From contig JADJPK010000007.1 in the NCBI GenBank assembly GCA_016713305.1, forward strand, positions 128,513 through 192,512: DNA of 64,000 bases, in the 5' to 3' direction. Below the pieces are notes generated by a model that was not told the origin of the DNA, ran no database searches, and saw only the letters and a program-made list of their open reading frames with translations. The position numbers and the translations under genes are program-made. How positions within the stretch are numbered: position 1 is the stretch's first letter; each line of letters starts with the position of its first letter. Source of the DNA: Betaproteobacteria bacterium (GTDB lineage: Bacteria; Pseudomonadota; Gammaproteobacteria; Burkholderiales; Ga0077523). Of this stretch, positions 37,210-61,224 are shown piece by piece.

Positions 37210-37211
37210 GC

Positions 37212-37709: not shown

Positions 37710-37710
37710 C

Positions 37711-38356: not shown

Positions 38357-38366
38357 GGGCGTTCAA

Positions 38367-39185
38367 TCAGAAGTTCGATGAAGGAGAGGAGTACACCGTA
38401 TGCCGGTCCTGCCGGGCGAATCCGATCAGCGTGAGCCCGGCTTGGCTGGCCGTGCGCACGGCCAGCGCCGTCGGCGCGGAGACCGCCGATAGTAGCGGGA
38501 TGCCCGCGGCGGCGGTCTTGTGGACCATCTCGTAGCTGGCCCGGCTCGTCACGGCGGCAAACCCGCTGGACGGATCCGTACCCCCGCGCAGCAGCGCGCC
38601 GATCATCTTGTCCAGGGCGTTGTGCCGGCCCACGTCTTCCCGCAGCAGCCGAACCCGACCCGAGCGATCGGCAAATGCGGCGGCGTGCACCGACCCGGTG
38701 AGCGCGTTGAGGCTTTGTCCTGCGGCGAGTTCCGTGTGCGCGCGTCTCAGCGCACGTGCGTCGGCCTCGGGCGCGGAGGGCACTCTGCGGACGGGCCGCA
38801 ACGCATCCGAGAGCATCTGCGCGCCGCACAGCCCGCAGCCCGTGCGACCCGCCAGCGAACGGCGCCGATCCGCGATGCGGTCGGTGAGCGGCAGAGGAAT
38901 GCTCAGGTACACCGAGAAGCCCTCATCTTCCGGCACGACTTCCACGGCCTGGATGTGGCCGGCCGATTCGACGATGCCTTCGGTCAGGCTGAATCCCCAG
39001 GCGAAGTCCTCGAAGTCCAGCGGCGTCGCGAGCATCACGGCGAACGGGATGCCGTTGTAGACGAATGCCACGGGACACTCTTCCGCGACCTGGTCTTCCG
39101 CCCGCACCACGGCATCGTCATGGCAGCGCCTCACCGGCACGCGGGTATGCGCGCCGTCGAGGCCTTGCATGTCGCCCGGTTTCAC
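38367..39185 (-). CDS. fdhD: Formate dehydrogenase accessory sulfurtransferase FdhD
   Basis: Full-length FdhD with the GRTGCGLCG motif and DVGRHNALDK. Confidence 0.9.
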   Translation of the reverse strand: MKPGDMQGLDGAHTRVPVRRCHDDAVVRAEDQVAEECPVAFVYNGIPFAVMLATPLDFEDFAWGFSLTEGIVESAGHIQAVEVVPEDEGFSVYLSIPLPLTDRIADRRRSLAGRTGCGLCGAQMLSDALRPVRRVPSAPEADARALRRAHTELAAGQSLNALTGSVHAAAFADRSGRVRLLREDVGRHNALDKMIGALLRGGTDPSSGFAAVTSRASYEMVHKTAAAGIPLLSAVSAPTALAVRTASQAGLTLIGFARQDRHTVYSSPSSNF

Positions 39186-39189
39186 CCGG

Positions 39190-42042: not shown

Positions 42043-42062
42043 GGTGCGTCCTCCTTGGAGGG

Positions 42063-43622: not shown

Positions 43623-44089
43623 GCGACCTCCCGAAGCTGGCTGGCCAGGACGCCGGCGGCGTCCGCGTTCACGCGTCCCCGCAGCCGGCCATCGACCATG
43701 AGCGAAGGCGCCAGGGCGCAGTTGCCGAGGCAGTAGACGGGTTCCAGCGTGACGGCACCGTCCGCGGTGGTCTGGTGGAGATCCACACCCAGCGCCTGGC
43801 GCAGCGATGCGAGCAGGGTATCGGCACCCATCGACTGGCACGCCTCCGCCCGGCAGACCTGGACCACGTGCCGTCCCGGCGGCACCTGGCGGAAGTGGTG
43901 GTAGAACGACACCACGCCATGGACTTCTGCACGGGACAGGTTCAGCGCACTGGCGATGGAAGCGATGGCCTCCGGCGGAACGTGGCCCAGGGCATCCTGG
44001 ATGTCGTGCAGCAGGGGCAGAAGGCCCCCGGGGACGTGCTGATGTCGTTCGATTGCCCGACCTATGACGGCGCTGGCGTCATCCGGCAT
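43619..44089 (-). CDS. fdsG: NAD-dependent formate dehydrogenase gamma subunit FdsG (NuoE-like 2Fe-2S)
   Basis: VCRAEAC...CLGNCALAP Cys pattern, with AGGAGGAAG upstream of the ATG at 44089. Confidence 0.85.
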   Translation of the reverse strand: MPDDASAVIGRAIERHQHVPGGLLPLLHDIQDALGHVPPEAIASIASALNLSRAEVHGVVSFYHHFRQVPPGRHVVQVCRAEACQSMGADTLLASLRQALGVDLHQTTADGAVTLEPVYCLGNCALAPSLMVDGRLRGRVNADAAGVLASQLREVA

Positions 44090-44391
44090 GACTTCCTCCT
44101 GGAGGGGCCCCTTCAGGACGGGGCGCCCCATGTTATCGACGGGGATCCGGCATCCTCCATAGGAATCGAGCAACATATGGGGCAGGCACGCGAGGGGCCT
44201 CGCCTCAAAGCGGCATTCGAGACGCTTGCCGGACCCCGGGCCGGATCGGGAACCGGCGCCGGAACCAGCGGACGAGTCACCCGCGCCCCAGCTTGTGCCT
44301 GGGGGAGAGCTCGACAGGGATCGCACCGGATCACGAGCATCTGCGACGCTAACAGGTGCATTGCGGCACCTTAATATGAAAAACCGTTCAC

Positions 44392-45480
44392 ATGAAACGC
44401 ATCGCCGTCAAACCGACCTGGATCCTCGAGGATGAAACCGGCCAGCGCGTGGGGCCGGAGGTTTTCGCCCTGCTCGCCGCCATCAACGGCAGCCGCAAGC
44501 TGACCGAGGCGGCCGAAGCGGTGGGCGTGTCCTATCGCCACGCCTGGGGCCTGGTGGAGACCTGGGGCGAATTCTTCGGCCAGCCGCTCGTGCGCTTCGA
44601 GCGGGGAAAGGGGACGTCGCTGACGCCGCTGGGCGAGAAGATCCTCTGGGCCGAGCAGAGGGCCATTGCCCGCATGGGGCTGCAGCTGGAATCCCTCGCC
44701 TCGGAAATCAATCTCGAGATCAACCAGCTCCTGGACTCGGCCCTGGCGACGGTCCGCATCCATGCGAGCCACGGATTCGCCGTGGCGCGCGTCCCGGCCC
44801 TGCTGCAGGACCATCCCCGCATCCGTCTGGATCTGCGCTATCTGGGAACCCTGGAATCGCTGGCATCGCTTGTCCGGGGAGCGTGCGATCTCGCGGGATT
44901 CCACGTTCCGGTGGGCGAACTGGGTGCCTCCGCCGCGCGTCAGTACCTGCGCTGGCTGCGCCCGGAGGAACACCGCATCGTGCATCTGGTCACGCGCACC
45001 CAGGGACTGTTCCTCGCAGCGGGAAACCCCAGGAATATTCGCGGGCTGGACGACCTGACCCGGCCCAATGTGCAGTTCGTCAACCGGCAGAAGGGGTCTG
45101 GAACGCGGCTGCTGTTCGACCAGCTGCTCGCCGCGGCCGGGATCGAAGGCGACCAGATCCGCGGCTACCGGACGGAGGAGTTCACCCACGCGGCCGTGGC
45201 GGCGTACGTGGGGAGCGGCATCGCCGACGCCGGCTTCGGTGTCCAGCCGGCCGCCCACAACCTGCGCCTGGATTTCGTGCCCATTGCCCGCGAGCACTAC
45301 TTCTTCGCCGTGGCACTCACCACGCTGGAGCGCCCCGAGATCCAGGAATTCCTGTCCCTGCTCAAGGGCGAAACGTTTCAGCAGATGGTCCGGGAGCTGC
45401 CGGGGTACGAAGCGCCCAAGGCAGGCGAGGTGTCCACGCTCGGCGAGGCGTTCCGGGAGGGGAGAAAGGCGAAAAGATAG
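44392..45480 (+). CDS. ModE-type HTH fused to a periplasmic-binding-protein-like (oxyanion-binding type) domain; putative Mo/W-responsive regulator
   Basis: The N-terminus LLAAINGSRKLTEAAEAVGVSYRHAWGLVETWG is paralogous to the two small ModE-like proteins. The C-terminal ~250 aa look like a PBP-type domain (NRQKGSGTR, GIADAGFG). It is transcribed divergently from fdsG. Confidence 0.6.
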   Translation: MKRIAVKPTWILEDETGQRVGPEVFALLAAINGSRKLTEAAEAVGVSYRHAWGLVETWGEFFGQPLVRFERGKGTSLTPLGEKILWAEQRAIARMGLQLESLASEINLEINQLLDSALATVRIHASHGFAVARVPALLQDHPRIRLDLRYLGTLESLASLVRGACDLAGFHVPVGELGASAARQYLRWLRPEEHRIVHLVTRTQGLFLAAGNPRNIRGLDDLTRPNVQFVNRQKGSGTRLLFDQLLAAAGIEGDQIRGYRTEEFTHAAVAAYVGSGIADAGFGVQPAAHNLRLDFVPIAREHYFFAVALTTLERPEIQEFLSLLKGETFQQMVRELPGYEAPKAGEVSTLGEAFREGRKAKR

Positions 45481-45762: not shown

Positions 45763-45818
45763 CGTTGCGCAAGGCCCGATTCCATTTGACGCTCCGGGCG
45801 AATGCCATTAGCCTCGTC

Positions 45819-45842
45819 CGCTATATAAATCGGGATATGACG
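45819..45842. promoter_or_regulatory. ModE-operator-like Mo-box CGCTATATAAATCGGGATATGACG overlapping the modB start
   Basis: The left half, CGCTATATA, equals the Mo-box half-site consensus as I recall it. It has 24-bp dyad architecture and overlaps the modB ATG at 45837. Confidence 0.6.
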
Positions 45843-46535
45843 TCAATGTGGGAGACAGGGGCGGGGCTTTCGGCCGCCGCGTGGACGCCGCTTGCGCTCT
45901 CGCTCAAGGTCGCCGGCTGGGCCACGGCACTGGTCCTGATCGCGGGCGTGGCGGTGGCCTGGCTGGTCGCGCGAGGGCGGTTCTGGGGCCGCGAGGTGTT
46001 CGATGCGCTCATGACGCTGCCCATGGTCATGCCACCCACGGTCCTGGGCTATTACCTCATCGTCCTGCTGGGGCGCCGGGGCTGGATCGGGCGCTGGCTT
46101 CATGAACAGTTCGACCTGGTCCTGATGTTCACCTGGCAAGGCGCGGTCATCGCCGCCGCCGTCGTCGCGTTCCCGCTGGTCTACAAGGCCGCCCGCGCCG
46201 CTTTCGAGGAAGTCCCCCGTCAGGCCGAGAACGCGGCCCGCGTGTTGGGCGCAACGGAGTGGGACGTCTTCGTCCGGGTGACGCTTCCCCTCGCGTGGCG
46301 GGGCATCCTCGCCGGAACCATGCTGGCGTTCGCCCGGGCACTTGGGGAATTCGGCGCCACCCTCATGGTGGCCGGGAGCATCCCCGGCAAGACCCAGACG
46401 CTGTCCATCGCGGTCTACGAGGCCGTGCAGGCCGGGCAGGACGATCAGGCGAACTTCCTCGTGGCCATCACCTCGCTCGTGTGCATCCTCGTGCTGGTGG
46501 GGTCCGGCCGTCTTCTGCGGGTGCGTACCGCTTGA
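45837..46535 (+). CDS. modB: Molybdate ABC transporter permease ModB
   Basis: Five or six TM helices and a CysTW/ModB-type loop ([41 protein letters not shown]). An alternative ATG exists at 45846. Confidence 0.85.
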
Positions 46536-47301
46536 AGCTGGAAATCTCGATCCGCCGGCAGTTTTCCTCCAACGGCCACCGCTTCGAGCTCGATGCGCAA
46601 GTGAGCTGCGAGCACGACGTCACGGTCATCTTCGGCCCGTCGGGCTCCGGCAAGAGCGTCACGCTGCAGGCCGTTGCCGGCCTGATGCGCCCGGACTCCG
46701 GCTTCATCCACCTGGGTGACCGGGCATTGTTCGACTCGGCCACGGGAGTCGACGTCCCCACGCGCGAACGCCGCGTGGCCTATGTCTTCCAGGACTATGC
46801 GCTGTTTCCCCACCTGAGCGTCGAGCGCAACGTGGCGTTTCCGCTCAGCCGCTGGTGGCAGTGGGGGCTGCCGGCTGGAGTGCGGGACCGCGTCCGCCGC
46901 ATGCTGGACACCTTCGAGATCGGACATCTCGCGCAGGCGTATCCGGGGCAATTGTCCGGGGGCCAGCGGCAACGGGTGGCGCTCGCAAGGGCGCTGGTAG
47001 GCGAACCGGAAATACTGCTTCTGGACGAACCGTTCAGCGCGCTGGACCCGCTGTTGCGCGAACGCATGCGACACGAACTGCTCCGCCTGAGGGAGCGATT
47101 CCACGTTCCCATGGTCGTCATCACCCACGATCCGGACGATGTCGCCGGCCTGGCCGACGAGGTCATCGTCTTCCGTGAAGGCCGCGTCGCCGCGACCGGC
47201 GATGCGCACGAGTTGCTGTCGCACGTGGAATCCGGTCCGCAGGTGCGCCGCGCCATGCGGAGGTTTCTCGCTCAAGCCGTGGAAGTGGAAAAAATATCAG
47301 G
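46532..47301 (+). CDS. modC: Molybdate ABC transporter ATP-binding protein (ModC-like); 3' end uncertain
   Basis: The TTG start overlaps the modB stop. It has Walker [24 protein letters not shown] and [11 protein letters not shown]. As read, the ORF runs on to 47689 through Cys/Arg-rich sequence. An A6 run at 47287-47292 precedes a TGA at 47299-47301 in the -1 frame, which I take as the likelier end. Confidence 0.7.
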
Positions 47302-47367
47302 TGACGTCCCGTGTTGCGGCCACCGCGCGACCGGAAATCCGTCACCTCTGACTACCCGGCATTCTCG

Positions 47368-47397
47368 CAATTCCCGTTCGTGGACGGGAAAATTGCC
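47368..47397 (+). terminator. Stem-loop downstream of modC
   Basis: GCAATTCCCGT-tcgtgg-ACGGGAAAATTGC forms an 11-bp stem with a 2-nt bulge. There is no U-tract. Confidence 0.3.
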
Positions 47398-47532
47398 GGT
47401 GGGGCGCTTGTCAGTCACATCTCCTTGCACCATATTGGCTTCAGATCCGACGCTGTCGAAGCGGTGCTCGCGTGCGTGCGCGTGCGGCTGCCGGGTACGG
47501 AAGCGCCGGACCCACTACAAGGAGAACGTCGA

Positions 47533-50119
47533 ATGCCCAGGGAAGGGATGTGCGTCCTGGACGCCTCCGGGCGTCTGCACGACGCCAACGACTCGCTGGC
47601 CGAACTGTTGCAAGCGGCCCGTGCCGATCTGGTCGGCAAGTGCCTTCTCGACCTTCTTCCGTCCGCCGGCGAACGTGTGCGGGCGATGATGGCGGCCCTG
47701 GGCTCCGGCGCAACCCGGTCCGTCGACGTCACGTTTGGAGGCACGGGCGCCGCGGCGCGTGACGTGCGGGTGACGCTCGCCCGCCTGTCGGGCGATTCGT
47801 TCTGCGCGACGTTCCGGGATCTGCCGATCTCTCCCGCCGACCTGGCCAGCGTGAAGGACTCCGAGGCGAAATTCTCGGCCGCCTTCCAGGGAAGCGTGGA
47901 TCCCATGGTCATCGTGCGGACCGAGGATGGTCTGATCCTCGACGTCAATCTGGCCTTCGAACAGTTGTTCGGCTATACGCGGGAAGACGCCATCGGCCGC
48001 CGCGTGCCCGAACTCGGCTTGTCGGTGGATCCGCATTTCAGGCAGCGGGTTGTGGAGGCACTGCGGTCCGGCGGACGGATGCGCGACGAGCCTTGGACGC
48101 TGCGAACCAAGTCGGGAGAAGTGCGGGAGGCATTGCACAGCGCATTCCTGATCTCGCGCGAAGGCGAGATGCGGCACGTGGCGGTGATCCGCGACGTGAC
48201 CGAACAGCGGGCGCGGGAGCGCGAGTTGCGCGAATCCGAGGCCAAGTTCTCGGCGGCGTTCCACGCAAGCGTCGAGGCCATGGTCATTTCCATGCTCGAC
48301 GACGGCCGCATCGTGGATGTGAACGAAGCGTACGTCCGCCTGACCGGCTATTCCCGCGAGGAGCTCATCGGCAGGACGACCCTGGAGATGGGGATCGTTG
48401 CCGATCCGGAGGGTCGCGCGTCCCGCGCAAACATGATGCGAGCCGAGGGGGCGGTGCGCGACGTGCCGTCACCCACGCGACGGCGCGACGGCGAAATCCG
48501 CGAATGCCTTCAGACGAGCTTCGGCATCGAGATCCGCGGCGAGCCCGGATGGGTGTCGGTACTGCGTGACGTCACGGACATCCGCCGTGCGGAGCGTGCA
48601 TTGCGGCAATCCGAAGCCAGGTTTCACGCAGTATTCCGCGGCAGCCCCGATCCGATCGTGATCAGCCACATGGACGACGGCGTAGTGGTCGATGTCAATC
48701 CCGCGCACGAGGTGCTGACGGGGTATTCGCGCGAGGAGATCGTCGGGCGCAGCGTCATGGACCTGGACATCGTCGATCTGCCGAAGCGCTCCGCGCTCGT
48801 GCAAGAGGTGCGCCGCCATGGCTTCGTCAAGGAATGGGAGTACACCAACAGGCACCGCTCGGGCGAAGTGAGGTTGTGCCTTCAGTCGAGTTTCCGACTG
48901 GATATCGGTGACGACGACTGCATGGTGTCGATCGTGCGCGACGTCACCGAGCTGCGCCGTATCGAGGCCGCGGTCCGGACGAGCGAGGAACGCCTGCGGC
49001 AAGCGGTGCGGGCATCCGCGATCGGCATCTTCGATCACGACCATCGCGCGGACACGATCTACTGGTCGCCGGAACAGCGGGCGATCTACGGATTCACGGC
49101 CGACGAGCCTGTCGATATTCCCCGCTTTCTGTCAAGCGTTCATCCCGCCGACCTCGACCGCATCGGAGCCGACGTGCGCCGGGCCCACGATCCGTCGGGC
49201 GACGGACTCTTCGACGTCGAGAAACGTATCGTCCGGCGCGACGGAGCCATACGGTGGATCGCCACCCGTTCGCAGACCTTCTTCGAGGGGCAGGGAGAGG
49301 CGAGGCGGCCTGTCAGGACCGTGGGCGCGGTGCTCGACGTCACGGAGCGAAAGCATATCGACGAGGAACTGCGACGCCTCAATGAGGAACTGGAAACCCG
49401 TGTGGCAGAGCGCACCGCCGAACTGGAACGCGCCAACCGGGACCTCGGAATCGTTCAGCTACTCCATTTCGCACGATCTGCGTGCGCCGTTGCGGCATGG
49501 TGGGTTACATCGACATGTTCGAACGCGACCTGCCGTGCCGCTGGACGACACGTCCAAGCGCCGTCTGGACGTGATCTCCGATGCCGCGCGCCGGATGGGG
49601 ACCATGATCGACAGTCTGCTGGCCTTCGCCAGGATCGGGCGGGCCGCGATGCAGTTCTCGGCCGTGGACGTGAATGCCGTCGTGGGGGATGTCCGGATGG
49701 AACTCAGGCCGGACACGGACAACCGCCAGATCGAGTGGGAGGTTGCGGAACTCCCGACCATCACGGCGGACCGGACCCTGCTCAAGATGGTGTTCTCCAA
49801 CCTCGTGTCGAATGCCATCAAGTTCACGGCAGAGCGTGCGCCGGCCCGCATCGGCATCGGCGCTCACCGCGCGGATTCCGGGTGGGTCTTCTTCGTGAGC
49901 GACAACGGCGCGGGGTTCGACATGCGCTACGCGGACAAGCTCTTCGGGGTCTTTCAACGGCTGCATAGCGCCGACGAGTTTCCCGGCACCGGCATCGGAC
50001 TCGCGAACTGCCGCCGCATCGTCGAGCGTCACGGCGGACGCATCTGGGCCGAAAGCGAACCCGGCGTAGGAACTCGCATTCTGTTCCTTGTTCCCGATCT
50101 CCCTCAACGAGCAGGCTGA
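47533..50119 (+). pseudogene. Multi-PAS (five PAS) sensor histidine kinase, frame broken in the H-box region
   Basis: AAGGAGAA lies upstream of the ATG at 47533. Five PAS modules are followed by ..ELERANRDL | ESFSYSISHDLRAPLRH | MVGYIDMFERDL | PLDDTSKRRLDVI.. read in frames 1, 2, 0 and 2. The HATPase boxes are VSNAIKFT, DNGAGFD and GTGIGL. The breaks are near 49446-49449, 49494-49499 and 49529-49534. Confidence 0.85.
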
Positions 50120-50121
50120 CC

Positions 50122-50568
50122 ATGCAACCGAAGCGAATCCTTCTGGCCGAAGACGATCCCAACGATCGCGAGCTGACGGTCACGGCGTTGCAGGAGTATC
50201 GGCTTTCCAACGAACTCATTGCAGTGAAGGACGGCGCGGAAGCCCTGGACTATCTTCTGCGGCGCGGTCAATACGCCGGCCTGCCGCCGGGCAATCCGGC
50301 CGTGGCCCTGGTGGACCTGAAGATGCCCCGCATGGGGGGCTTGGAAGTCCTGCGCGAGATCCGGGCGACGCCTTCATTGCGGATGCTTCCCGTCGTCATC
50401 CTCACTTCGTCGAAGGAAGAGGCGGACGTCGCCGACAGCTACGGCCTCGGCGCCAACGCCTATGTCGTGAAGCCCGTCGACTTCCACGACTTCGTCGACG
50501 CCATCAAGACGGCCGGGCTGTTCTGGGCCGTCCTCAACGAGCCGCCGCCCGGAACAGTCGCCCCCTGA
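50122..50568 (+). CDS. Single-domain response regulator (CheY-like receiver)
   Basis: LLAEDDPND, VDLKMP (phospho-acceptor Asp), TSS and KP motifs. It starts 2 nt after the kinase stop. Confidence 0.85.
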   Translation: MQPKRILLAEDDPNDRELTVTALQEYRLSNELIAVKDGAEALDYLLRRGQYAGLPPGNPAVALVDLKMPRMGGLEVLREIRATPSLRMLPVVILTSSKEEADVADSYGLGANAYVVKPVDFHDFVDAIKTAGLFWAVLNEPPPGTVAP

Positions 50569-50575
50569 GCCCGCG

Positions 50576-53229
50576 ATGCAAGCACCAGCACTGCCCCGCT
50601 TGCGGGTCCTGCATCTCGAGGACGATCCCTGGACTGCGACATCGTGCGCGACCGGCTGCGCCAGGAAGGCATCGAATGCGACGTGCAGTGCGTCGCGGGC
50701 AGGAGCGAGTACTCGGCGGCCCTCGAGGCTTTCGCCCCCGATCTGATCCTGTCCGATCACGCGCTGCCCGGGTTCGACGGTGTGTCGGCTCTGCGGATGG
50801 CCAGGTCGCTGCGGCCGGCCGTGCCGTTCATCTTCGTCTCCGGCGCCATTCTCGAGGACGAGGCGATCGAGATGCTCAAGCAGGGGGCCACCGACTACGT
50901 TCTCAAGAACCATCTGGGCCGGCTCTGTCCCGCCGTGCGCCGGGCGTTGCAAGCGGCGCGGGAACAGGACGAACGCCAGCGCGCTCTGCGCCGCGCTGCG
51001 AGACAGCGAGCGGCTGCTGAGGCAGATCATCGATCTGGTCCCGCACTTCATCTTCGCCAAGGATACGCAGGGCCGTTTCCTGCTGGCCAACCAGGCGGTC
51101 GCCGACGCCTACGGGGCGACCGTGACCGAACTGCTGGGCCGGTCGGATGCGGATTTCCGGCGGCCGGAGGCCGAGACCGCGCGCAGTCTCGCGGAGGACC
51201 GCGCGGTCATGGAAGTGGGGTGCGGCAAGTCGGTTGTCGAAGAAACGGTCACCGGCGTGGGCGGACTCGCCCGCATCGTGCAGACGACCCGCATTCCGTT
51301 CGCCGTGCCGGGCAAGGCCGAGCGCGCAGTCCTGGGCGTGTCCAGCGACATCACGGAACTGCGCTTGGCCGCGACCGCGTTCCAGTCGCACGAAGGCATT
51401 TTCATTACCGATGCCGACGGCGTGATCCAACGCGTGAACCGCGCGTTCCTGGACATCACCGGGCTGTCCGCGGATCGGGCGCTGGGCATGCGGGCCACCG
51501 AACTGTTCGTGAACGGAGAGGGGTCCTCTCCGAGCCAGTGGTCCGCTTTCGTGATCAGCGGCAGCACGTACTGGCAGGGAGAGGCCCAGGCGAGACGCGT
51601 CTCCGGCGACGTGTATCCCATCTGGGAAACGATCACCGCCGTCCGGCGCGACGACGGCGCGGTGACGCACTACGTCTGCCATTTCCAGGACATCAGCGAA
51701 CGCAAGCAGATCCAGGAGCGCATCGAGTACCTCGCCTTCCACGATTCGCTTACCCATCTGCCCAACCGCTCGCTGCTCATGGATCGCTTGCAGCAGGCCA
51801 TCGCGCGCAATCGCCGGCGCGGGCTTTCGGGCGCGCTGCTCTATCTGGATCTGGACCACTTCAAGAACATCAACGATTCGCTCGGGCATCCAACCGGCGA
51901 TCTGCTCCTGTGCGACGTCGCCCGCTGCCTTCTCGCCCAGGTGCGGAGCGAGGACACGGTGGCGCGGCTGGGAGGCGACGAGTTCGTGGTGCTCCTGCCT
52001 CAGCTCGAAGGGGCGCGCGACGCGGTCGCACGCGAGGCGCGTGCCATCGCCCAGAAGATCCGCGAGGCGCTGTCCGGGGACTTCATCATCGCCGGCGACC
52101 GGCTTCGGGCCAGTGCGAGCATCGGTGTGATTCTCTTCCCCGAGGGCGAGGAGACTGCCGACGACATCCTGCGTCACGCGGACATCGCGATGTACCAGGC
52201 GAAGGCGGCGGGCCGGAACACGGTGCGATTCTTCTCGCCGGAAATGCAGGCAGCGGTCAGCGAGCGGCTGCTGCTGGAAGGTCAGCTTCGCGATGCGGTC
52301 GTCCGTCAGGAGTTCATCGCCTATTTCCAGCCGCAGATCGAGCTGGCCACCGGCCGGCTGTTCGGAGTGGAAAGCCTGCTGCGCTGGCAGCATCCGGCCC
52401 ACAGTCTGCAGCCCCCGTCGTCGTTCATCCCCCTTCTCGAGGACACCGGCCTCATCCTGCCGGTGGGCCAGTGGCTGCTGCGGCACGTGTGCGAGACGCT
52501 GGGCGCACTGAAGGCCAAGGGTCACCATGTGCGGGCGGCGGTGAACGTGAGCCCGCGCCAGTTCTACCAGGCGGATTTCGCCGACCGTATCCGCGATGTG
52601 CTGGAGGAAACGGGCACGTCCCCGGAGACCCTCGAACTGGAGATCACCGAGAGCGCGGTCATCGACGACATCGACCACACCATCGGCATCATGCGGCGTT
52701 TGAAGGACCAGGGAGTCCGCTTCTCCCTGGACGACTTCGGCACCGGATACTCGTCCCTGAGCTATCTCAAGCGGCTGCCGCTCGACACGCTGAAGATCGA
52801 CCGTGCGTTCGTTCGAGATTGCACGACCGATGCCAACGACGCCGCGATCGTGCGGGCGATCCTCGCCATGGCGTCGAGCCTGGGGCTCGAAGTGGTGGCA
52901 GAGGGTGTGGAGACGGGGCCCCAGCTGGAATTCCTGCGGTCGCTGGGCTGTGCCTCGTACCAGGGGTATCTGTTCAGTCCGCCGGTGCCGCTGGACAGGC
53001 CGGCCGCACTGCTCGACGATCGCGCAGGCTCCGGCCGCCAGAGCAAAGTCCGGATCAACGTGCGCGGCCTCGGCCGGGGCCCGGTTTCCACTTCGCCACC
53101 CGCGCGGCCCTCGCGTGTTCCGGCGGAAGTGCGATCCGTGTGCACGGATTGCACATCTTCCTGCTCATGGCGGCGTGGCCGCTTCCTCCCCCCGATCCGG
53201 TTTGGTCGCAGGCTCCACGCCGGCCATGA
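50576..53229 (+). pseudogene. Receiver-PAS-PAS-GGDEF-EAL c-di-GMP signalling protein, frame broken; 3' end unresolved
   Basis: MQAPALPRLRVLHLEDDP | LDCDIVRDRLRQEG..ILSDHALPGFDG.. | ..LRDSERLLRQIIDLVPHFIFAKD.., then RLGGDEFVV, ESLLRW, DDFGTGYSS, EGVET and QGYLFS. The breaks are near 50627-50630 and 50975-50995. The domain frame has no stop until 53776. The earliest stop in any frame is at 53227-53229. Confidence 0.8.
53129..53154. terminator. Strong hairpin between the convergent GGDEF-EAL and ModE-like genes
   Basis: GTGCGATCCGTG-..-CACGGATTGCAC forms a stem of about 11 bp including one G-T pair. There is no U-tract on either strand. Confidence 0.3.
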
Positions 53230-53578
53230 GCGACGCAAAGGCCTCGACCTCGGCTTCCACCGACTGCAGCGCCTTGCTCTCGAGTTCGCGGAACCGGCCG
53301 AGAATGTCGCGCCCCAGGTCCGTGAGCATGGCGCCGCCGCCGCCATCGCCCCCGACCTTGCAGTCGATGAGCGGCGACGGGAACATCATGTTCAGCTCCT
53401 CCACCAGGTTCCATGCACGGCGGTAAGGCATGTCGATGCGTCGCGCCGCCGCGGTGATGGAGCCGGTGGCGGCGATGGCCTCCAGCAGCGCGGCCTTGCC
53501 AGGGCCGAACGCAAGCGCGTGACGAAAGCTGATCTGGACCGTGCATGGCCGCGGCGTTGCGGGAACTGGAGTTGGCAC
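53165..53578 (-). CDS. ModE N-terminal-domain-only regulator, paralogue 2
   Basis: GPGKAALLEAIAATGSITAAARRIDMPYRRAWNLVEELN..GGDGGGGAMLTDLG aligns along its length with the protein at 37711-38097. The GTG start lies 12 nt after the DUF1111 stop. Confidence 0.6.
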   Translation of the reverse strand: MPTPVPATPRPCTVQISFRHALAFGPGKAALLEAIAATGSITAAARRIDMPYRRAWNLVEELNMMFPSPLIDCKVGGDGGGGAMLTDLGRDILGRFRELESKALQSVEAEVEAFASLMAGVEPATKPDRGEEAATPP

Positions 53579-53590
53579 GGTGACGTGGCA

Positions 53591-54995
53591 TCAGAGGGAT
53601 TCCAGGAAACGCACCAGGGCGCTACGGTCGGTGAGGGGCGCGAGACGGAACGATTCGCGCGCGGGACGCGCCTGACCACCGTGCCAGAGGATCGCCTCCT
53701 GCAGCGTGCGTGCGCGGCCGTCGTGCAAGAAGCCCGCACGAGGGTTCACCACGTGAGCCAGTCCGATGCCCCATAGCGGTGGTGTACGCCAGTCGCCGCC
53801 CGACGCCGCGAAGTCCGGCCGGCCATCCGCGAGATCAGGTCCCAGGTCGTGGAGGAGGAGATCGGAGTAGGGGCGGATGGTCTGTCGGGAAAGCTGCGCG
53901 AAACGGGGGATTGCCGGTCGTCAGTTCCGGTACATGGCATTGGGAACAACCGAAATCGTTGAAAAGGTGCTCGCCGCGAAAGACGTCGGGTACGCGTTCG
54001 CCTCGGCGCGCCGGGACGGGCAGCAGACTCATGTAGACCGTCAGGTCCTCCAGTTGCCTCGCGTCCAGTTCAGGCGTGCCGCCGTGAGGTGCGCGTGCGC
54101 ACTCGACCTGCGGAGCTGCGCAGTTTTCCGTCCGGAACAGGTCGGAGGTGATGCCCATGTCGCCCCAGGCAGCCGCGGCGTTCTGCTGCCGCAGGTGCGG
54201 CTGGTTGGACTTGAGCCCGAACCGGCCCGTCACGAGTTCGCCCTTGCGCACGTCTAGTACCCTGTTGACGCGGCTCGCACCCATGCCGGGCCTTTCGGCG
54301 AGGGCGCGCAAGGTGGTTTCGTCCACGGCCTCCAGCAGCCCCAGCCCGTACACCGGAGGGGCAACGCGGGCAGACATCAGCAATTGCACCTTCGGCGCGC
54401 CGAAACGCAGGTTGTGCAGGGTGAACACCGGGCGGCGTAGTTCCACGGACTCTCCCCCGGCAAGTGTGACGCGCTCGATCGTGTACGTGACGCGGGCCTC
54501 CCCCTCACCCGGTATGCCGGGGATGCCCGACTCGTTGATCTGGTCACCGTAGGCCGGATGAGGATGCGGGGGTTCATCCGGAAGTGCGCCCGGCTGGCTG
54601 ATGCGCATGAGCATGGCGCGCATTTCCTCGTCCGGACCGTCGGGCGCAAAACCACGCCCATTTCTGACGTGACATGCGCCACAGGACATCCGGTTGTAGA
54701 CGGGACCGAGACCGTCCACGGCTGCGTCCTCCGATGGTGCAACGACCCAGACTTGGCGGAACAGACTGCGTCCACGGAGAAAGGAGGCGCGCAGGTCGTC
54801 AGGAAGGCCCTCGGGGGCGAGGGAATAGGCGTCGCGGTGTTCCGCTCGCACGGTGAGCGATCCGCCGGCGCCACGCATCGTCCCCTCAACGGAATCGATA
54901 CCGGACCAGGATGCCGAAACGCAGAACGACAGGCCGAGCAGCGCGGACGTGCAACGGGCTGCAGGGGCTCGGAGGCGTACCGTCCTTCCCGACAA
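53591..54995 (-). pseudogene. Di-haem cytochrome c / DUF1111 family (putative peroxidase or thiol oxidoreductase), frame broken
   Basis: Two CxxCH sites (CGACHV, CSQCHVP). The C-terminus (QTIRPYSDLLLHDLGPDLADGRPDF..WRTPPLWGIG..FLHDGRARTLQEAILWHGG..) lies in another frame, ending at 53591. The break is in the run at 53898-53910. The 5' end (TTG 54995, which gives a signal-like ALLGLSFCVSASW) is tentative. Confidence 0.75.
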
Positions 54996-56307
54996 TGTCG
55001 GCAAGCCGGGTTGCGGCCGCCCGGGTGTGCACGTCGAAGAACCTGTCCCATTCGCGTTCGATCTCGGCTGCCCGGGCAAGCGCACGTGGGTCGCCACGGC
55101 GCCGCTCATCGAACGTGCGGTTCAGGTTGGCGTCCGCTGCCTGTTCGGCATTCAAAGGGAGCGCTTCGAGATGCCGGGTGGCGTCTTCGATCGCCTCCCG
55201 GCCGGCCCTGTCCGGACGGACTGCGTAAGCCTGTTCCGCTCGCCTGAGCTTTCGCAGCGCGTCGCGCAGGATGGGCTGTCGACGCGTGATCATCGCGTCG
55301 AAAAGCGCGGCGACGACGAGGGATCGCGCGATGCCTGTCGCCGGGTCGTAACGCAGCGCCAAGGCGTCGGGCGCGTCGAACGGACTGAGGCCGAAGGCGG
55401 ACGCATCCTGGTAAGACGATGGTCGCACGGATAGCTTGGCCACATCCGCGTCACCCAGGAGCTGCTGACCTTCGGGTGAGAGCAGAAATGCGACGAAGCG
55501 GTGCGCGGCCGCCGGATGCGCCGCATGGGTCAACACGCCGACGTGCGCGAACGAGTACCCGTTCGCCGTGGGACGCGTGAGGACGAACGGGGCTCCATTG
55601 GCGATGGCAGAACGAGCGAAGAAGTCGATGGTGAGGCCAACTGCCGCTTCGCCGCCACGTAGTTCATCGGAGATGAACGCGCCGCTGCCGTCGATCAACC
55701 GGTTGAATGCGGCGATACGCGACAGGAGAGACCAGCCGTCGCGCCATCCGAGGGACTGCAGCACACCGTCGACCAGGGTCGAGGCGAAGCCGACCTTCGA
55801 CGGAATGGGGAACAACACCAGGCCATCGAATCGTTCGTCGGCAAGATCCGACCACTCGCGCGGAATCGGCAGTCCGTGTACGGCCAGCGTGGCAGGAGCG
55901 CTGACGATGCCGAAGCTGGCCATCTCCACGCCCTCATACCGGCCCTGCGGGTCGGAGAACTGAAGCGGGCCGGCACGCCCGGGAAGCTGCGTGCGGTCGA
56001 CATCCAGGACCGCAAGCAGGCCTTCGTCCGAGAGGGCGATGAAGTTCCGATAGGCGGGGGACCAGTAGACATCGATTCGCGCATTCCGGTCACTGCGCAA
56101 CGAGGGAAGCGCGTCGTGAGGCATGCGCCACACGAATTGGATGTCGATGTCCGGATTGGCACGTTCGAACGCAGCTTCGAAACGGCTGAACACCTCCTCT
56201 GGATAGCTTGTGAGGACGACGACGTCCTCGCGTGCGTAAGCGGGAGAAAGAAGCGCGATTGCGAACGCCACAAAGACGTGCAAGACAGGGCAGGACAAGA
56301 GGCGCAT
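54886..56307 (-). CDS. Periplasmic solute-binding protein (Fe3+/FbpA-like PBP fold) with helical C-terminal extension
   Basis: Signal peptide MRLLSCPVLHVFVAFAIALLSPAYA followed by VVVLTSYPEEVF..IDVYWSP..GVLTHAAHPAAAHRFVAFLLSPEGQ. No cognate permease or ATPase is adjacent. The last ~35 codons overlap the next gene and may be spurious. Confidence 0.7.
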   Translation of the reverse strand: MRLLSCPVLHVFVAFAIALLSPAYAREDVVVLTSYPEEVFSRFEAAFERANPDIDIQFVWRMPHDALPSLRSDRNARIDVYWSPAYRNFIALSDEGLLAVLDVDRTQLPGRAGPLQFSDPQGRYEGVEMASFGIVSAPATLAVHGLPIPREWSDLADERFDGLVLFPIPSKVGFASTLVDGVLQSLGWRDGWSLLSRIAAFNRLIDGSGAFISDELRGGEAAVGLTIDFFARSAIANGAPFVLTRPTANGYSFAHVGVLTHAAHPAAAHRFVAFLLSPEGQQLLGDADVAKLSVRPSSYQDASAFGLSPFDAPDALALRYDPATGIARSLVVAALFDAMITRRQPILRDALRKLRRAEQAYAVRPDRAGREAIEDATRHLEALPLNAEQAADANLNRTFDERRRGDPRALARAAEIEREWDRFFDVHTRAAATRLADIVGKDGTPPSPCSPLHVRAARPVVLRFGILVRYRFR

Positions 56308-56389
56308 GAATTACTCCGAAAGCGCCGAAAACCGGCGGGAGATGGACGTGATCCTCCGTGCCATTTCTGCCAGGACAGCGCTTTCTTCT

Positions 56390-56413
56390 CGATATGTTGA
56401 CACAAATATAACG
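56390..56413. promoter_or_regulatory. ModE-operator-like Mo-box CGATATGTTGACACAAATATAACG between the TonB receptor and binding-protein genes
   Basis: It has the same 7-N10-7 dyad as the other three boxes and lies 83 nt upstream of the binding-protein ATG. Confidence 0.5.
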
Positions 56414-56465
56414 AACGCGATCGGGTGTCGAATCGGCACGGAAATATTGCTGCGGGGCCTGGAGC

Positions 56466-58474
56466 TCAGAAGCGATAGGAAGCATTGGCGAAGAGCGAAC
56501 GTCCGGGATTCGGAAAGCCGAAGTCCAACTGGTAGTTCTTGTCCAACAGATTGGTCACGCCCACTTCGGTCGAGACGTTGCGAACCGGTCGCCAGGTCAG
56601 CTTGACATTGAGCACGGCGAAACCGCCGACCTTGACGGTGTTGCTTGCCCAGCGGCCGCTGAACTGCTCGCCGAACGCGGTGACGTCCAGGGACTCGGCG
56701 GGCCGCCAGATCCCGAACAGCGTCAGTTTGGCCTGAGGAATGCCTGTCAGGCGCACGCCAGGATTCCTCTCGTTGCGCAGATGGAGGAATGTCGCGTTAC
56801 CGCCGAGTTCCAGGGATGTACCGACAGTAGAGCGCAAGCCGTCTCCGCGCCGACGATGCGGACCTCCGCCGACGTTCTGCTGCTGACAGAGGTTCGTCGA
56901 CGAGCAGGTGGCTGCGCCGTTCAGATTCACGCTCTGGATCTTGTCTTCGATCTTGTTCTGGAACAGCGCGAACTCCGCCTGTGCCGCGCCCCATGGGCGC
57001 CCCTGGTAGCCGACTTCGAAATTGCGTGCCTGTTCGGCGCGCAGGCTGGGGTTTTCGACATACGTATTGAGCCGCTGCGAATAGCGATCCTTGAGGGTCG
57101 GCAGGCGTGTCTTCTCGGCGAAGGTCGCGTACAGCCTCGCTGTCGGCGACAAGTCGTGGAAAAGACCGAATTGGGGATCGTTCGCTGTCTGCCTGCCGGG
57201 CAGTGAATAGGTCGGACCGGCGCCCGACTTGTAGACCCGGTCTGGATCGAGCGCGTGATGGGAGAATCCGATGGAGAGCGTGGTCCCGTCTCCGACGGAG
57301 ACCGCATCCTCGACAGCGAAGGTGCGAAGCGTGTCCGAGAAGTCTGCCCCGATAGCCGCGTTGGCATCTGTTTCCTCATGCTGGTCGCGCTTGTACTGGG
57401 CAATCAGCCGGACGGTGTTGCCAGGGAAGCGCCGGGATTCGAGCTCGATCGACCCGCCGAACGTGCGGTCCTCATAGATGCTGCGTCCCGTGGAGACACT
57501 GCCCGGACCGCTCGTCCTGAGCACCGAATAGCTTGCGTCCGTGAAGGTGTCGACCTCGTTGTCGAACTTGTCCAGGTACAGACGCAAGCGCAGGGACTCC
57601 CGCTCTCCAAGGCCGGTTCGTGAGATGAAGTAGAGGCTCTCCTTGTCCCAGAATGGCCACTGCCCGAAGCGGGCGGAAGCCGGGTCGGTCGAGGGTGGCT
57701 GTCCCTTCTTGCCGTTCTGCTGGAGATACGTGAGGGCGTACTCGTCGTCTCCCCGTGGGGTGAAGCCCAGTTTCAGCGACACCTTGTCGTCGCGGAAATG
57801 CGAGTTATTCCGCGTATTGCCGTCCTCTGTGGCGGTGGGCTGAAATCCGAAGACATCCGGAATCCGTCTGCGTCACGATACGAGACGCCTGCCTGGACGT
57901 ACCAGCGCTCGTGCCGGCTGCCCACGTTCGCATCGGCCCGATGCGCGTTCCCCTGGCCGATGCCCACGGTAACGTCGCCTTCCAGTTCCCGCGAGGGACG
58001 TCGCGAGATGAGATTGATCGCACCTCCCAGGGTGTTCGGTCCATACGCCACCGAGCTGAATCCCTTGGCCACCTGGATGCCGGAGAGATCCGCAGTTGCA
58101 AAGCGGCCGAAGTCGACATAGCCATCGTAGGGCACGTAGACCGGAATGCCATCTATGAACAGGGGCGTCTGGCGAGGGTCGTACCCCCGCATGTATACGG
58201 TTTGTTCGTTGCGGACATTGCTCGTGACCGCGATGCCAGACAAGAGGTTCAGCGCATCGCTCACCGTGGGCCGGTCGAATCGGCGGATCTCGTCTGCCGT
58301 GACGACGGACGAAACCTGTTCCGAAAGGATCTCGCCGACCTCGGGTCGCTTGGCCGTGACGAGAACCGTTCCGAGATGGAACACCCCGGCATCGGCGGCG
58401 AGTGCCGTGCAGGGGACCGAGAGGGCGAACACCGTGAGACACGACGTACGTGACATGAAATGGCCCTTGGGCAT
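56466..58474 (-). pseudogene. TonB-dependent outer-membrane receptor, frame broken
   Basis: The N-terminal part has a signal peptide (..CLTVFALSVPCTALA) and a plug (VTADEIRRF..YMRGYDPRQTPLFIDGIPV..GGAINLISRRP) in ORF 57773-58798. The barrel in ORF 56466-57782 ends in ..NASYRF. The break is in a C-run (minus strand) at 57836-57841. An alternative start exists at 58456. Confidence 0.85.
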
Positions 58475-58586
58475 GTCGACGGTTTCTCGGCCAGCCGCGT
58501 GTCCTCGATTGGGGCCGCTCTTGCGATACGGCAGGCGGATTTCGGATTCGGCACGACGCGACGCGCGAGTCATGCCGGTAGACAGG

Positions 58587-58610
58587 CCGGCAATTGCGTT
58601 ATAGTGTGCA
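58587..58610. promoter_or_regulatory. ModE-operator-like Mo-box CGTTATAGTGTGCAGAATATAACG upstream of the TonB receptor
   Basis: Perfect 7-bp inverted repeat CGTTATA/TATAACG with a 10-nt spacer, 113 nt upstream of the receptor ATG at 58474. Confidence 0.6.
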
Positions 58611-58721
58611 GAATATAACGATAGGCGGCAACATCCATCTCCATTTTTTGGGTTCGATGGATGCACACGGACGCCAAGATTCGCGAGGACACTGATCGCG
58701 CGCATCTGATAGTTGACATTG

Positions 58722-58745
58722 CGATATGTCCGGAACAACATAACG
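58722..58745. promoter_or_regulatory. ModE-operator-like Mo-box CGATATGTCCGGAACAACATAACG upstream of the porin-modA operon
   Basis: It has the same dyad architecture. It overlaps a possible TTGACA (58713-58718)-N17-CAACAT promoter and lies 100 nt upstream of the porin ORF. Confidence 0.55.
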
Positions 58746-58845: not shown

Positions 58846-60434
58846 GTGAGGGGGCCGGCTGGGATCGCCCACGCAGCGGCTGCCGATGAACCGGAACCCA
58901 CCCTCAAGCGTGTGCAGCAGCTCGAATCCGTGGTGGAATCGCTGGCGGCGCAGCTGGATGCACTTCGCCTTGAACTACAGAACGCCAGACGTGAACTCGA
59001 AGCCGCCCGTGGGACGGCTACGCCTGCCGAGGCTCCGCCGGCCGGGCATGCCGCGGATCTGCCTCCCACCCGGCGCGAGTTGAATGAAGCGCTCGCCACA
59101 GCACAGGAGGCGAAGGAACAGGCCGCCTCCATCCAGCAACGCTTCGACCAGCAGGGGGTGCAGGCGAGCTTCACGGACGGCCTCACCTTCCAGGACCCGC
59201 GAGGCCGCTGGACGCTCAAGATGATGGGGAGGGCGCAGCTGGATTACCGCCATTTCCTCGGCGCCGAAGAAACGCTCGCCGACACCTTCAGCGTCCGCCG
59301 AGCCCGGCTGGGGGCGCAGGCCACGCTGTTCAAGGACTACCTGGTCCAAGTGGAAGGCGAGTTTTCGGGCAGCTCGGTCACCATGACCAACGGCTTTCTC
59401 GAATTGCAGTGGTTCCCGCGGCGAAGGTCCGCATGGGGCAGTTCAAGCCGCAGTTCGGTCTGGAGCAGACTCTGCTCGACTTGCAGAGCGATTTCCAGGA
59501 GCGATCCCTCACCCAGAACCTGCTCGACGGCAACGGTCTCAACTACGACCGGGGAATCATGGTTCACGGCGCACCGTGGAAGCCTGTCTACTACGCCGTG
59601 ATGGTGTCCAACGGGACGGGCGTGGGGCTGGACGAGCAAGGCCGCAACGCCTCCGAGGCCCGTGCGGACAGCAAGGATGTCACCTTGAGAGGTGTCGTCG
59701 ACTTCGCTCAACTGATCGACGTGCAGGACGCGGTCCTGCACGCAGGGTTGTCCTGGAAGTCAGGCAAGCAGGCCAACAGGCAGACGGCGCAGGCGGACGC
59801 CTTCGCCGCGCCGGCGTTCCGGACCGAGTCTCGCGGACTGACGTTCTTCACGCCGCAGTCTTTCTTCGGCGCGGGCGGCACGACGGGCGAGATCGAACGT
59901 ACGCTCCAGGCGTTCGAGATGTCGACCTCCTGGCGGTCGCTGCGTTTGACCGGAGAGTGGTGGAAGGGGACCTATGCGGGTGCCAGAACCCCCACGGCTG
60001 GAACCCCGGCGGAGTTCTCGCGCGACATTACGGCCAGTTACGTGAGCCTGCTGTGGCTCGCCAGTGGCGAGGTATGGTCCGACTACTACGGTGGCGGCTA
60101 CTGGCAGAAGGTGCGGCCCAACAACCGCTTCTCGTTCGAGCCGGGCGGGGGCTGGGGTGCGTGGGAGCTGGGTCTGCGCTACAGCCAGATGAATGCCTCC
60201 GACTTTCGCGGCACGAACGGCGCGGGTACTGGCCAGGTGTCCGCCACTGCCCCGGTGACTCAGGCGACCACCAAGGCCGACGCCTGGACGGCACAGATCA
60301 AGTGGATCCAGAACAACTACGCGCGCTGGCTGCTGAGCTACGTGCAGACGCGGTTCGATACGCCGGTCCTCGTCAACGGGGTGGCGATAGAGCGCGAGGA
60401 GGCCATCCTCTTCCGCGCACAGGTGGATTTCTGA
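58846..60434 (+). pseudogene. Phosphate-selective porin O/P (OprO/OprP) family anion channel, frame broken; 5' end unresolved
   Basis: Coiled-coil N-terminal region, then FTDGLTFQDPRGRWTLKMMGRAQLDYR..ELQWFP | AAKVRMGQFKPQFGLEQ.. through to ..ILFRAQVDF. The break is at 59416-59422. A signal-peptidase-like AHA-AAADE site is present, but no intact signal peptide or start codon could be found upstream. Confidence 0.75.
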
Positions 60435-60468: not shown

Positions 60469-61224
60469 ATGAAGCGATTGAAGAACCTGATGTGTGCCGT
60501 GCTGCTGGGAACGGCTGCCGCAGGGAATGCCATGGCGGCGGACATCACCGTTTCCGCGGCATCGAGTCTGACCAACGCCTTCCAGGAGATCGGACGGCAG
60601 TTCGAGAAGGAACGCCCTCAAGACCGTGTCCTGTTCAACTTCGGATCCTCCGGGCAGTTGGTGCAGCAGATCGTCCGCGGAGCGCCGGTGGATGTGTTCG
60701 CTTCGGCCGACGAGGACTCCATGAACAAGGCGGAGAAGGAAGGGGCGATCGACCGCCCGTCTCGATTCGATTTCGCTCGCAACCTGCTTGTGCTGATCGT
60801 GCCGGTGGATTCGCGACTCACCGTGCGGACACTGCGTGACGTCTCCCAGCCGGCCTTCGGGCGGATCGCCATCGGCAATCCGGACTCGGTCCCAGCCGGG
60901 CGGTACGCCAAGGCGGCCCTGGAAAAGGCGGGCCTCTGGAGCGCGTTGCAGGACCGGCTCGTCAACACCGTGAATGTCAGGCAGGCGCTCGACTACGTGG
61001 CACGCGGCGAGGCCGACGCGGGATTCGTCTATGGCAGCGACGCCAGGCTCATGCCCTCCCGCGTGAGATCCGCGCTGGAAGTGGAGGTGCCGCAGCCGAT
61101 CCTCTATCCGGTGGCTGTCGTGAGGGGCGGCGGCAACAGGAGCGGAGGCGCGGCATTCGTCGCCTATCTCAAGTCAAGGGCCGCACTGGACATCCTGGTC
61201 AAGTACGGATTCCAGACGCCATGA
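60469..61224 (+). CDS. modA: Molybdate ABC transporter substrate-binding protein ModA
   Basis: Signal peptide followed by ITVSAASSLTNAF..FNFGSSGQL..VFASAD..IGNPDSVPAGRYA..VRQALDYVARGEADAGFVY. Confidence 0.9.
   Translation: MKRLKNLMCAVLLGTAAAGNAMAADITVSAASSLTNAFQEIGRQFEKERPQDRVLFNFGSSGQLVQQIVRGAPVDVFASADEDSMNKAEKEGAIDRPSRFDFARNLLVLIVPVDSRLTVRTLRDVSQPAFGRIAIGNPDSVPAGRYAKAALEKAGLWSALQDRLVNTVNVRQALDYVARGEADAGFVYGSDARLMPSRVRSALEVEVPQPILYPVAVVRGGGNRSGGAAFVAYLKSRAALDILVKYGFQTP

Follow-up and report, generated by a model that had tools for sequence, protein, structure and literature searches.

Predicted ModE-type operators in front of molybdate transport, porin and TonB receptor genes in an uncultured betaproteobacterium

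Background

In Escherichia coli, ModE represses modABC through an operator that overlaps the modA transcription start. We describe here four inverted repeats of 24 bp that resemble this operator (Mo-boxes) in a stretch of 64,000 nucleotides from a Betaproteobacteria bacterium (GenBank assembly GCA_016713305.1, contig JADJPK010000007.1, positions 128,513 to 192,512 of the forward strand), which is referred to as the window throughout. An earlier note, made from the sequence alone, had drawn attention to the repeats and to their likeness to ModE operators. The consensus of the ModE operator is ATCGNTATATA-N6-TATATANCGAT (PMC545781, PMC2700814), and the boxes have the same architecture. As in the E. 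coli modA operator, a 24-bp inverted repeat with CG-n-TATAT arms is found at the promoter or transcription start of a molybdate ABC transporter, and the helix-turn-helix (HTH) of E. coli ModE is homologous to the HTH of the ModE-type proteins encoded in the window. E. coli ModE senses molybdate by two C-terminal Mop domains (PMC11672702), whereas the three proteins of the window are devoid of them. The arrangement of the genes also differs. In contrast to E. coli modABC, modA of the window is located apart from modBC and paired with a porin gene, and the predicted regulon additionally comprises a TonB receptor and an operon encoding a periplasmic binding protein (SBP) and an oxidoreductase.

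Several other described systems are close to the one in the window. MopA and MopB of Rhodobacter capsulatus repress at Mo-boxes; as in the window there is more than one ModE paralogue per genome, and molybdate transporter operons are repressed through the boxes when Mo is replete (PMC6925177). Unlike the proteins of the window, however, MopA and MopB are full-length ModE-like proteins, and their known targets (mopA-modABC, morAB and anfA) include no outer-membrane proteins. A further precedent for repression at Mo-boxes is ModE of Methanosarcina acetivorans. The archaeal motif RTTATGT-N8-RCATAAY, validated by electrophoretic mobility shift assay, shares with our boxes the half-site core TTATGT/ACATAA and the inverted-repeat layout, and metal transporters are among the targets (PMC12327845). 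This regulator differs in being archaeal, in having kept one Mop domain and in having alternative nitrogenases as its main targets. A ModE HTH without Mop is found in PDB entry 2ijl (135 aa) and in the ModE_N genes of Desulfovibrio (PMC545781), as in the proteins encoded at 37711-38097 and 53165-53578 of the window. The site predicted for Desulfovibrio ModE_N is another palindrome, CGGTCACG-N14-CGTGACCG (PMC545781), whereas the window keeps the classical box. Finally, LysR-type regulators such as CbnR, BenM, OxyR and CcmR have the winged HTH, the linker helix and the effector domain of type-II periplasmic binding protein (PBP)-like fold that are seen in the structural model of the third regulator, a fusion protein. 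Unlike LysR-type regulators, the fusion has an HTH of the ModE subtype (TIGR00637) and a ModA-like effector domain (PF12727/PF13531) instead of LysR_substrate proper, and the operator is a ModE box rather than the T-N11-A box of that family.

How molybdate crosses the outer membrane at nanomolar concentrations is poorly understood. In the literature that we searched, the only route described was the T6SS-ModA-IcmP system of Pseudomonas aeruginosa (PMC11734730, PMC8602904), although earlier computational target listings may exist. A 2024 review of the substrates of TonB-dependent transporters does not mention molybdenum, tungsten or vanadium.

Identification of four Mo-boxes

Four places in the window match the pattern CGNTATR-N10-YATRNCG (seven matches when counted by strand, with three of the boxes matching on both strands). 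Box 1 (CGCTATATAAATCGGGATATGACG, 45819-45842, 24.1 bits) is the predicted operator of the modBC promoter. Box 2 (CGATATGTTGACACAAATATAACG, 56390-56413, 26.7 bits) is located 52 nt past the stop codon of the TonB receptor gene and 83 nt 5' of the SBP gene. Box 3 (CGTTATAGTGTGCAGAATATAACG, 58597-58620, 33.3 bits) lies 5' of the TonB-dependent receptor gene on the minus strand, and box 4 (CGATATGTCCGGAACAACATAACG, 58722-58745, 28.1 bits) is the predicted operator of the porin-modA promoter. All four are intergenic, and with a GC content of 33-46% compared to about 65% for the window they are the AT-rich islands that had been described.

The expected number of chance matches to the pattern is 0.01 per window in dinucleotide-preserving shuffles and about 0.004 per 7 kb at intergenic base composition, in line with the earlier estimate of far fewer than one. 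Since the pattern had been written from the sites, less circular tests were added. The E. coli core CGNTATATA-N6-TATATANCG, which was taken from the published consensus, matches three of the four boxes and nothing else when up to 3 mismatches are allowed, and it gave no match in the shuffles. A weight matrix built exclusively from the boxes of related loci gives 24-33 bits for the four boxes. Elsewhere in the 64 kb no position exceeds 8.2, and the best score across 60 simulated windows was 17.9.

When the boxes of the window and of two further relatives (L011 and L012, see below) were added to this matrix, it singled out one site within the 5 kb scanned around modE-acrZ-modABC of E. coli K-12. 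This site, CGTTATATTGTCGCCTACATAACG (795046-795069), ends 20 nt before the modA ATG and scores 22.8 bits, whereas the next site scores -1.3. It agrees with the published ModE consensus. The boxes thus combine an inverted repeat of about 24 bp similar to CGnTATATA-N6-TATATAnCG with a location at molybdate-transport promoters, conservation in orthologous loci and ModE-type domains encoded close by. The observation is real, and the evidence supports reading the boxes as ModE operators; they are predicted sites of a kind of operator that is already known.

The positions 45819, 56390 and 58722 given in the earlier note are correct, while its third, 58587, is a 10-nt slip for 58597 next to a correctly quoted sequence. 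The 83 nt between box 2 and the ATG of the binding protein were measured again with the same result. The distances of 113 nt to the receptor and 100 nt to the porin had been taken to reading frames that are damaged in the window; in the related locus L002, where both genes are intact, they are 142 and 150 nt. Box 1 had been described as overlapping the modB start. It does overlap an alternative ATG at 45837, but it ends 3 nt before the probable ATG at 45846. The statement that boxes occur only before transport genes holds loosely, as the operon behind box 2 also contains genes for a di-haem oxidoreductase and a ModE-type regulator.

Conservation in related loci

Loci of relatives were collected by homologue look-ups in activated-sludge and other metagenomes. 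L002 has 97% DNA identity to the window, L004 and L005 have about 82%, and L006 has about 76% across porin-modA. The other loci are L007-L010, in which the regulator is 79-82% identical, L011, a genome of 5.3 Mb with a 77% identical porin, and L012, with a 69% identical porin.

The boxes were found in these loci as well. Boxes 2, 3 and 4 are at the same positions in L002, L004 and L005, and counterparts of box 1 adjoin the modB start in L007-L009, L010 and L011. In alignments with a mean column identity of 75-79%, from loci that are 76-97% identical, the half-sites do not vary at all, in contrast to the central spacers and the flanks, which have diverged. Box 2 follows this pattern in L002, L004 and L005, and in L006 the boxes at the equivalent SBP and porin intergenic positions are spelled differently. 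In 109 kb of relatives' loci, 10% of which is intergenic, all matches of at least 18 bits are intergenic. They precede modB, porin-modA, TonB receptors, the SBP operon, a second porin type or an Oxidored_molyb-like gene; outside the 109 kb, one box in L011 precedes a ModE_N gene. The porin-modA pair with its upstream boxes is kept in every relative examined (L004-L012).

In L007-L010 the fds genes are followed by the divergent genes regulator-modB-modC-porin-modA. In the window, modC and the porin gene are separated by about 11 kb (47300-58500), which contain genes for a PAS histidine kinase, a response regulator and a PAS-GGDEF-EAL protein as well as the module of ModE_N, oxidoreductase, SBP and receptor. 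As modC and porin are adjacent in L007-L011, these 11 kb are a lineage-specific insertion, which placed c-di-GMP signalling genes inside the Mo cluster. A scan of a genome collection with the SBP as seed yielded one distant Phycisphaerae locus, which is without boxes, and a plasmid collection gave no relevant match. No Rfam family, the Moco riboswitch included, reached its threshold in the window.

Locus L006, with strong boxes at 11914, 15227 and 15265, shows some additional features. A gene of the Porin_5 family is preceded by two tandem Mo-boxes at distances of 54 and 92 nt, and a gene with PEP-CTERM-type matches and a faint match to Oxidored_molyb by one strong Mo-box at 60 nt. After modA there is a free-standing gene for a TOBE/Mop protein of 69 aa (8508-8717), which has no equivalent in the window.

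ModE-type regulators

Three ModE-type DNA-binding proteins with a TIGR00637 domain are encoded near the boxes, as had been noted before, at 37711-38097, 44392-45480 and 53165-53578. All three contain the recognition helix SYR(R/H)AW, to which SYKSAW corresponds in E. coli ModE.

The protein encoded at 44392-45480 (plus strand, 362 aa) is a fusion of a ModE-type HTH with a PBP_like/ModA-like domain (PBP_like 2e-62, SBP_bac_11 6e-10 and HTH_1 in Pfam). Its N-terminus matches PDB 2ijl ("molybdenum-binding transcriptional repressor") and the E. coli ModE structures 1b9m and 1o7l. The AlphaFold model (pLDDT 87) matches full-length structures of LysR-type regulators with E values of about 1e-14, and the features of this class are present: an N-terminal HTH_1, a linker helix and a C-terminal type-II PBP fold (Pfam HTH_1 and LysR_substrate/PBP_like). 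The effector domain also matches the C-terminal domain of PRK14498. The protein is identical to P0121 and has more than 3000 homologues, a family that is already annotated as "ModE-like" or "MolR family". No experimental study of this family was found in a literature search that was hampered by unrelated uses of the word "mode". Encoded directly upstream of modBC, the fusion is our preferred candidate for the molybdate-sensing repressor.

The other two proteins consist of ModE_N only, and a sensor domain is not evident in either. The gene at 37711-38097 (plus strand, 128 aa) begins 1 nt past the moaE stop codon and thus appears to be co-transcribed with the molybdopterin synthase genes. There is no Mo-box in front of the mobB-moaE-ModE_N cluster in the window; in L011, a box is located 83 nt upstream of the equivalent ModE_N gene. 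The gene at 53165-53578 (minus strand) is the last of the operon behind box 2 and has the same position in L002, L004, L005 and L006. At the end of a box-controlled operon, it would itself be regulated by Mo.

Promoter geometry

A promoter-like element for modBC at 45786-45814 on the plus strand was recognized in an alignment of the window with L010 and L007. It consists of a -35 hexamer TTGACG (45786-45791), a 17-nt spacer and a -10 hexamer TAGCCT (45809-45814), and it is conserved in the three lineages with TAGCCT or TAGCAT as the -10. Box 1 begins 5-6 nt past this -10, so that it would cover the predicted transcription start. In front of the porin, a -35 hexamer TTGACA (58713-58718, plus strand) precedes box 4 by exactly 3 nt, and the box therefore occupies the spacer and the -10 region; the window, L004 and L006 share the arrangement TTGACA-N3-box without variation. 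On the minus strand, boxes 2 and 3 overlap with hexamers of the -35/-10-like kind that are conserved but weaker, and a -35-like T(T/C)GACA lies upstream of box 2. With transcription starts at the predicted places, this would be a classic repressor geometry.

Mo-boxes upstream of TonB receptors in metagenome loci

The TonB-dependent receptor behind box 3 reached no curated family cutoff. Its nearest solved relatives are CirA, FepA and BtuB, with E values of about 1e-16 or weaker. More than 2200 homologues (E < 1e-30) were found, among them proteins from Thiobacillus, Methylophilaceae, Dechloromonas, Rhodocyclales, Pseudothauera, Parvibaculum and Campylobacterales. A sample of 80 metagenome loci with receptor homologues of 39-66% identity was searched for boxes, and 76 of these could be scored because at least 200 nt of upstream sequence were available.

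In 53 of the 76 loci, a box of at least 15 bits was found no more than 450 nt upstream of the receptor, and a further 13 loci have boxes 550-1430 nt upstream. In total, 79 matches were found in 38.8 kb upstream of receptors as opposed to 36 in 758 kb elsewhere. With 200 column-shuffled matrices, the same upstream sequences gave a mean of 0.1 matches (maximum 2). Outside this family, a second, essentially unrelated receptor type is located behind the same kind of box in L006, and L007 and L008 have a receptor in the same gene context as this second type.

The surroundings of the 80 receptors were analysed with tblastn. A ModE-type HTH is encoded near 39-40 of them (E <= 1e-6 / E <= 1e-5), and in 26 of these loci the HTH is followed by Mop on the same strand, as in a full-length ModE-like protein. 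The same box type therefore appears to serve canonical ModE in other taxa. Near the receptor, modA is found in 22 and modB in 21 of the 80 loci. The SBP recurs on the same strand about 2.0 kb past the receptor start in 19 loci, and the di-haem oxidoreductase, likewise on the same strand, about 3.3 kb past it in 15. Taken together, the boxes and the recurrent neighbours indicate that the ModE regulon repeatedly includes the receptor, in many cases together with the SBP-oxidoreductase pair, far outside the clade of the window.

Some loci of this sample contain additional genes next to the boxes. In L019, an ORF with a DUF4213-DUF364 "putative heavy-metal chelation" match (4873-5928) immediately follows a ModE_N gene and separates the Mo-boxes from the receptor; the spacing from box to receptor is the same in L015-L017. 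In L065, a DUF2478 gene (4569-5081) precedes the boxes. The DUF4213-DUF364 and DUF2478 genes are possible further members of the Mo regulon. L065 also has a pair of small ORFs between Mo-box and receptor (5257-5956), one of them with an XRE-type HTH, which is possibly a toxin-antitoxin module.

Proposed regulation and alternative explanations

We consider it very probable that the four boxes are ModE-type operators at promoters, through which a regulator would repress a set of uptake genes when molybdate or tungstate is plentiful. A winged-helix dimer of the ModE type would read the two CG-n-TAT-R half-sites, whose centres are about 17-18 bp apart. Each box would overlap the core promoter or the transcription start of one transcription unit, so that the bound regulator would block RNA polymerase when molybdate (or tungstate) is abundant. 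Under scarcity the whole set would be derepressed: the porin, the TonB receptor, the periplasmic binding proteins and ModBC in the inner membrane. In the fusion, the oxyanion would be bound by the ModA-like domain, much as effectors are bound by the corresponding domain of LysR-type regulators. We infer repression as opposed to activation, the metal signal and the identity of the binding protein.

Several findings weigh against this interpretation. TOBE/Mop domains were found neither in the three regulators nor anywhere else in the 64-kb window. None of the three is therefore a canonical ModE, and another part of the genome could encode one. For the effector domain of the fusion, a family profile gave only insignificant matches to anion-binding proteins in the PDB. 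A strict scan for sigma-70 promoters and terminators called neither in the three regulatory regions, and the promoter assignments thus rest on the conserved weaker hexamers. Moreover, the receptor and porin genes look disrupted in the window (see below), so that boxes 3 and 4 may control defective genes unless the disruptions are assembly errors.

Several alternatives were considered. One is that the boxes are of the ModE type but respond to tungstate or to both oxyanions, and that the cluster supplies tungsten, for instance to the adjacent formate dehydrogenase. The cluster does adjoin an fds-type formate dehydrogenase and fdhD, and ModA of the window also matches WtpA models weakly. ModA- and ModE-type proteins in general discriminate poorly between molybdate and tungstate, which would suit this idea. 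However, the scores of modA, modB and modC exceed or come close to what the molybdate equivalog models require and fall far short of the WtpABC cutoffs. Nor did the window yield a gene of the TupA or WtpA type, and we consider this explanation unlikely. We regard it as similarly unlikely that some boxes are activator sites, as ModE sites are at some E. coli promoters. This would mainly concern box 3, whose distance upstream of the receptor exceeds 100 nt. E. coli ModE carries the annotation of a dual regulator, ModE has been called an activator or repressor (PMC12327845), the scanner found no consensus promoter, and the transcription starts are predicted ones. On the other hand, conserved -35- or -10-like hexamers overlap or adjoin each box, and the targets serve uptake, a function that Mo represses in all systems studied (PMC6925177, PMC11672702).

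A regulator other than ModE, for example an iron-responsive one, would be suggested by the gene products themselves: the TonB receptor, the FbpA-like binding protein and the di-haem oxidoreductase resemble parts of iron uptake systems, the nearest named families of the receptor are siderophore, haem and B12 receptors, and the nearest solved relatives of the binding protein are Fe(III)-binding proteins. Yet the same type of box precedes modB and porin-modA, it is the modA operator that the matrix picks out in E. coli, and ModE-type HTH genes stand beside the receptor in half of the 80 loci. A Fur-type iron box was rejected as the motif is not of this type, and we consider a non-ModE regulator very improbable. 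A further explanation is that the matches are due to chance or to generic AT-rich promoter sequence; after all, the pattern was defined after the sites had been seen, and intergenic DNA is somewhat richer in AT. With an expectation of 0.004-0.01, an independent consensus that recovers three of the four sites, a relatives-only matrix that recovers all four and nothing else, 0.1 matches for shuffled matrices compared to 79 for the real one, and sites that are conserved as islands, we rejected generic promoter DNA and regard a chance origin as practically ruled out. The boxes are not remnants of a repeat or mobile element either, for only the 24 bp are common to them and their spacers differ.

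Implications for molybdenum uptake

The operator itself is textbook knowledge; what adds interest is that the regulators are without Mop and that the predicted regulon has conserved members in the outer membrane. The ModE box is nearly unchanged in uncultured Betaproteobacteria whose regulators, as far as they are encoded in the window, are without the Mop sensor domains, either through loss or from the outset. This raises the question of how the metal is sensed by an HTH-only ModE or by a fusion of the ModE HTH with a ModA-like domain.

The presence of an outer-membrane porin and of a widespread TonB receptor family in the predicted Mo regulon points to a dedicated uptake route across the outer membrane. 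More specifically, and only tentatively, we propose that the Mo-box regulon marks outer-membrane routes for molybdenum, namely the OprO/P-type porin, which would share a transcript with modA, and the TonB receptor of about 660 aa, which would import Mo or W species. The substrate of the receptor would be scarce, complexed or modified Mo (or W), such as a metallophore complex or a thiomolybdate that needs to be oxidized. If this is true, the receptor would be the first class of TonB-dependent transporters assigned to molybdenum. The analysis provides candidates. One is a porin whose gene invariably forms a pair with modA; the other is a large receptor family, for which about 70% of the sampled loci have Mo-boxes upstream. 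Cultivable genera carry homologues of the receptor, and the named ones include Dechloromonas sp. CZR5, Methylophilus sp. 14, Pseudothauera rhizosphaerae and Thiobacillus.

Gene map and disrupted genes

On the plus strand, mobB, moaE and the 128-aa ModE_N gene (36186-38097) are followed by fdsD, fdhD and the formate dehydrogenase subunit genes on the minus strand (38129-44326). Downstream of the fusion gene, modB (45846-46535, plus strand) encodes the permease of the molybdate ABC transporter (TIGR02141, 246 bits, above cutoff); its start was set by alignment with L007. The ATPase gene modC (46532-47689, plus strand) was found as an ORF of 385 aa, of which residues 10-232 match ModC models. ModC of the relatives has 251-270 aa and no TOBE domain, and the modC ORF of the window overlaps the start of the PAS kinase ORF (47311), so that its 3' end is uncertain. 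The genes for the PAS histidine kinase, the response regulator and the PAS-GGDEF-EAL protein come after modC.

In the direction of minus-strand transcription, the receptor (56466-58484) is followed by box 2, the SBP gene, the di-haem oxidoreductase gene and the ModE_N gene, while boxes 3 and 4 are located in the divergent region between receptor and porin. The SBP (54967-56307, minus strand, 446 aa), encoded by the first gene after box 2, belongs to the FbpA/AfuA/PhnS cluster; the di-haem oxidoreductase (PF06537) is encoded at 53591-54878 on the minus strand. The porin at 58861-60434 (plus strand) is of the OprO/OprP type. It matches PF07396 Porin_O_P with 33.9 bits (cutoff 20.9) and has no NCBIfam equivalog match; precomputed PF07396 matches exist for all porin homologues, and the OprO/OprP assignment denotes a match to this family. 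Immediately downstream, modA (60469-61224, plus strand) encodes the molybdate-binding protein (TIGR01256, 220 bits, above cutoff).

Some of these genes look damaged in the window. The receptor gene has two uncompensated 1-nt deletions (57841 and 58464) that put the plug region out of frame and an in-frame TGA (57875-57873), and it was deposited as a truncated protein of 438 aa (P0263). The intact receptors of L002, L004 and L005 have 663-664 aa with Plug and TonB_dep_Rec_b-barrel, whereas only the barrel is in frame in the window copy. In comparison with L002, the porin gene of the window lacks about 100 bp (between 58858 and 58861), which comprise the ribosome-binding site, the ATG and the signal peptide, and it has a 1-nt deletion at 59417; the di-haem oxidoreductase gene has a 2-nt deletion near 53908. 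The window differs from L002 by 22 small indels, many of which are in short G/C runs inside genes, and the damaged receptor, oxidoreductase and porin genes are intact in all relatives. The indels and the porin gap are due either to assembly errors in the metagenome-assembled genome or to strain-specific decay (pseudogenisation).

The formate dehydrogenase region shows a similar irregularity. The longest ORF at 39412-43332 (minus strand) has 1306 aa, but its match to the Pfam domains of the alpha subunit of formate dehydrogenase starts only at residue 447. In the relatives, FdsB (about 518 aa) and FdsA (about 945 aa) are two distinct proteins, and the long ORF may be an artefact of a missing stop codon or a frameshift, like the other indels of the contig.

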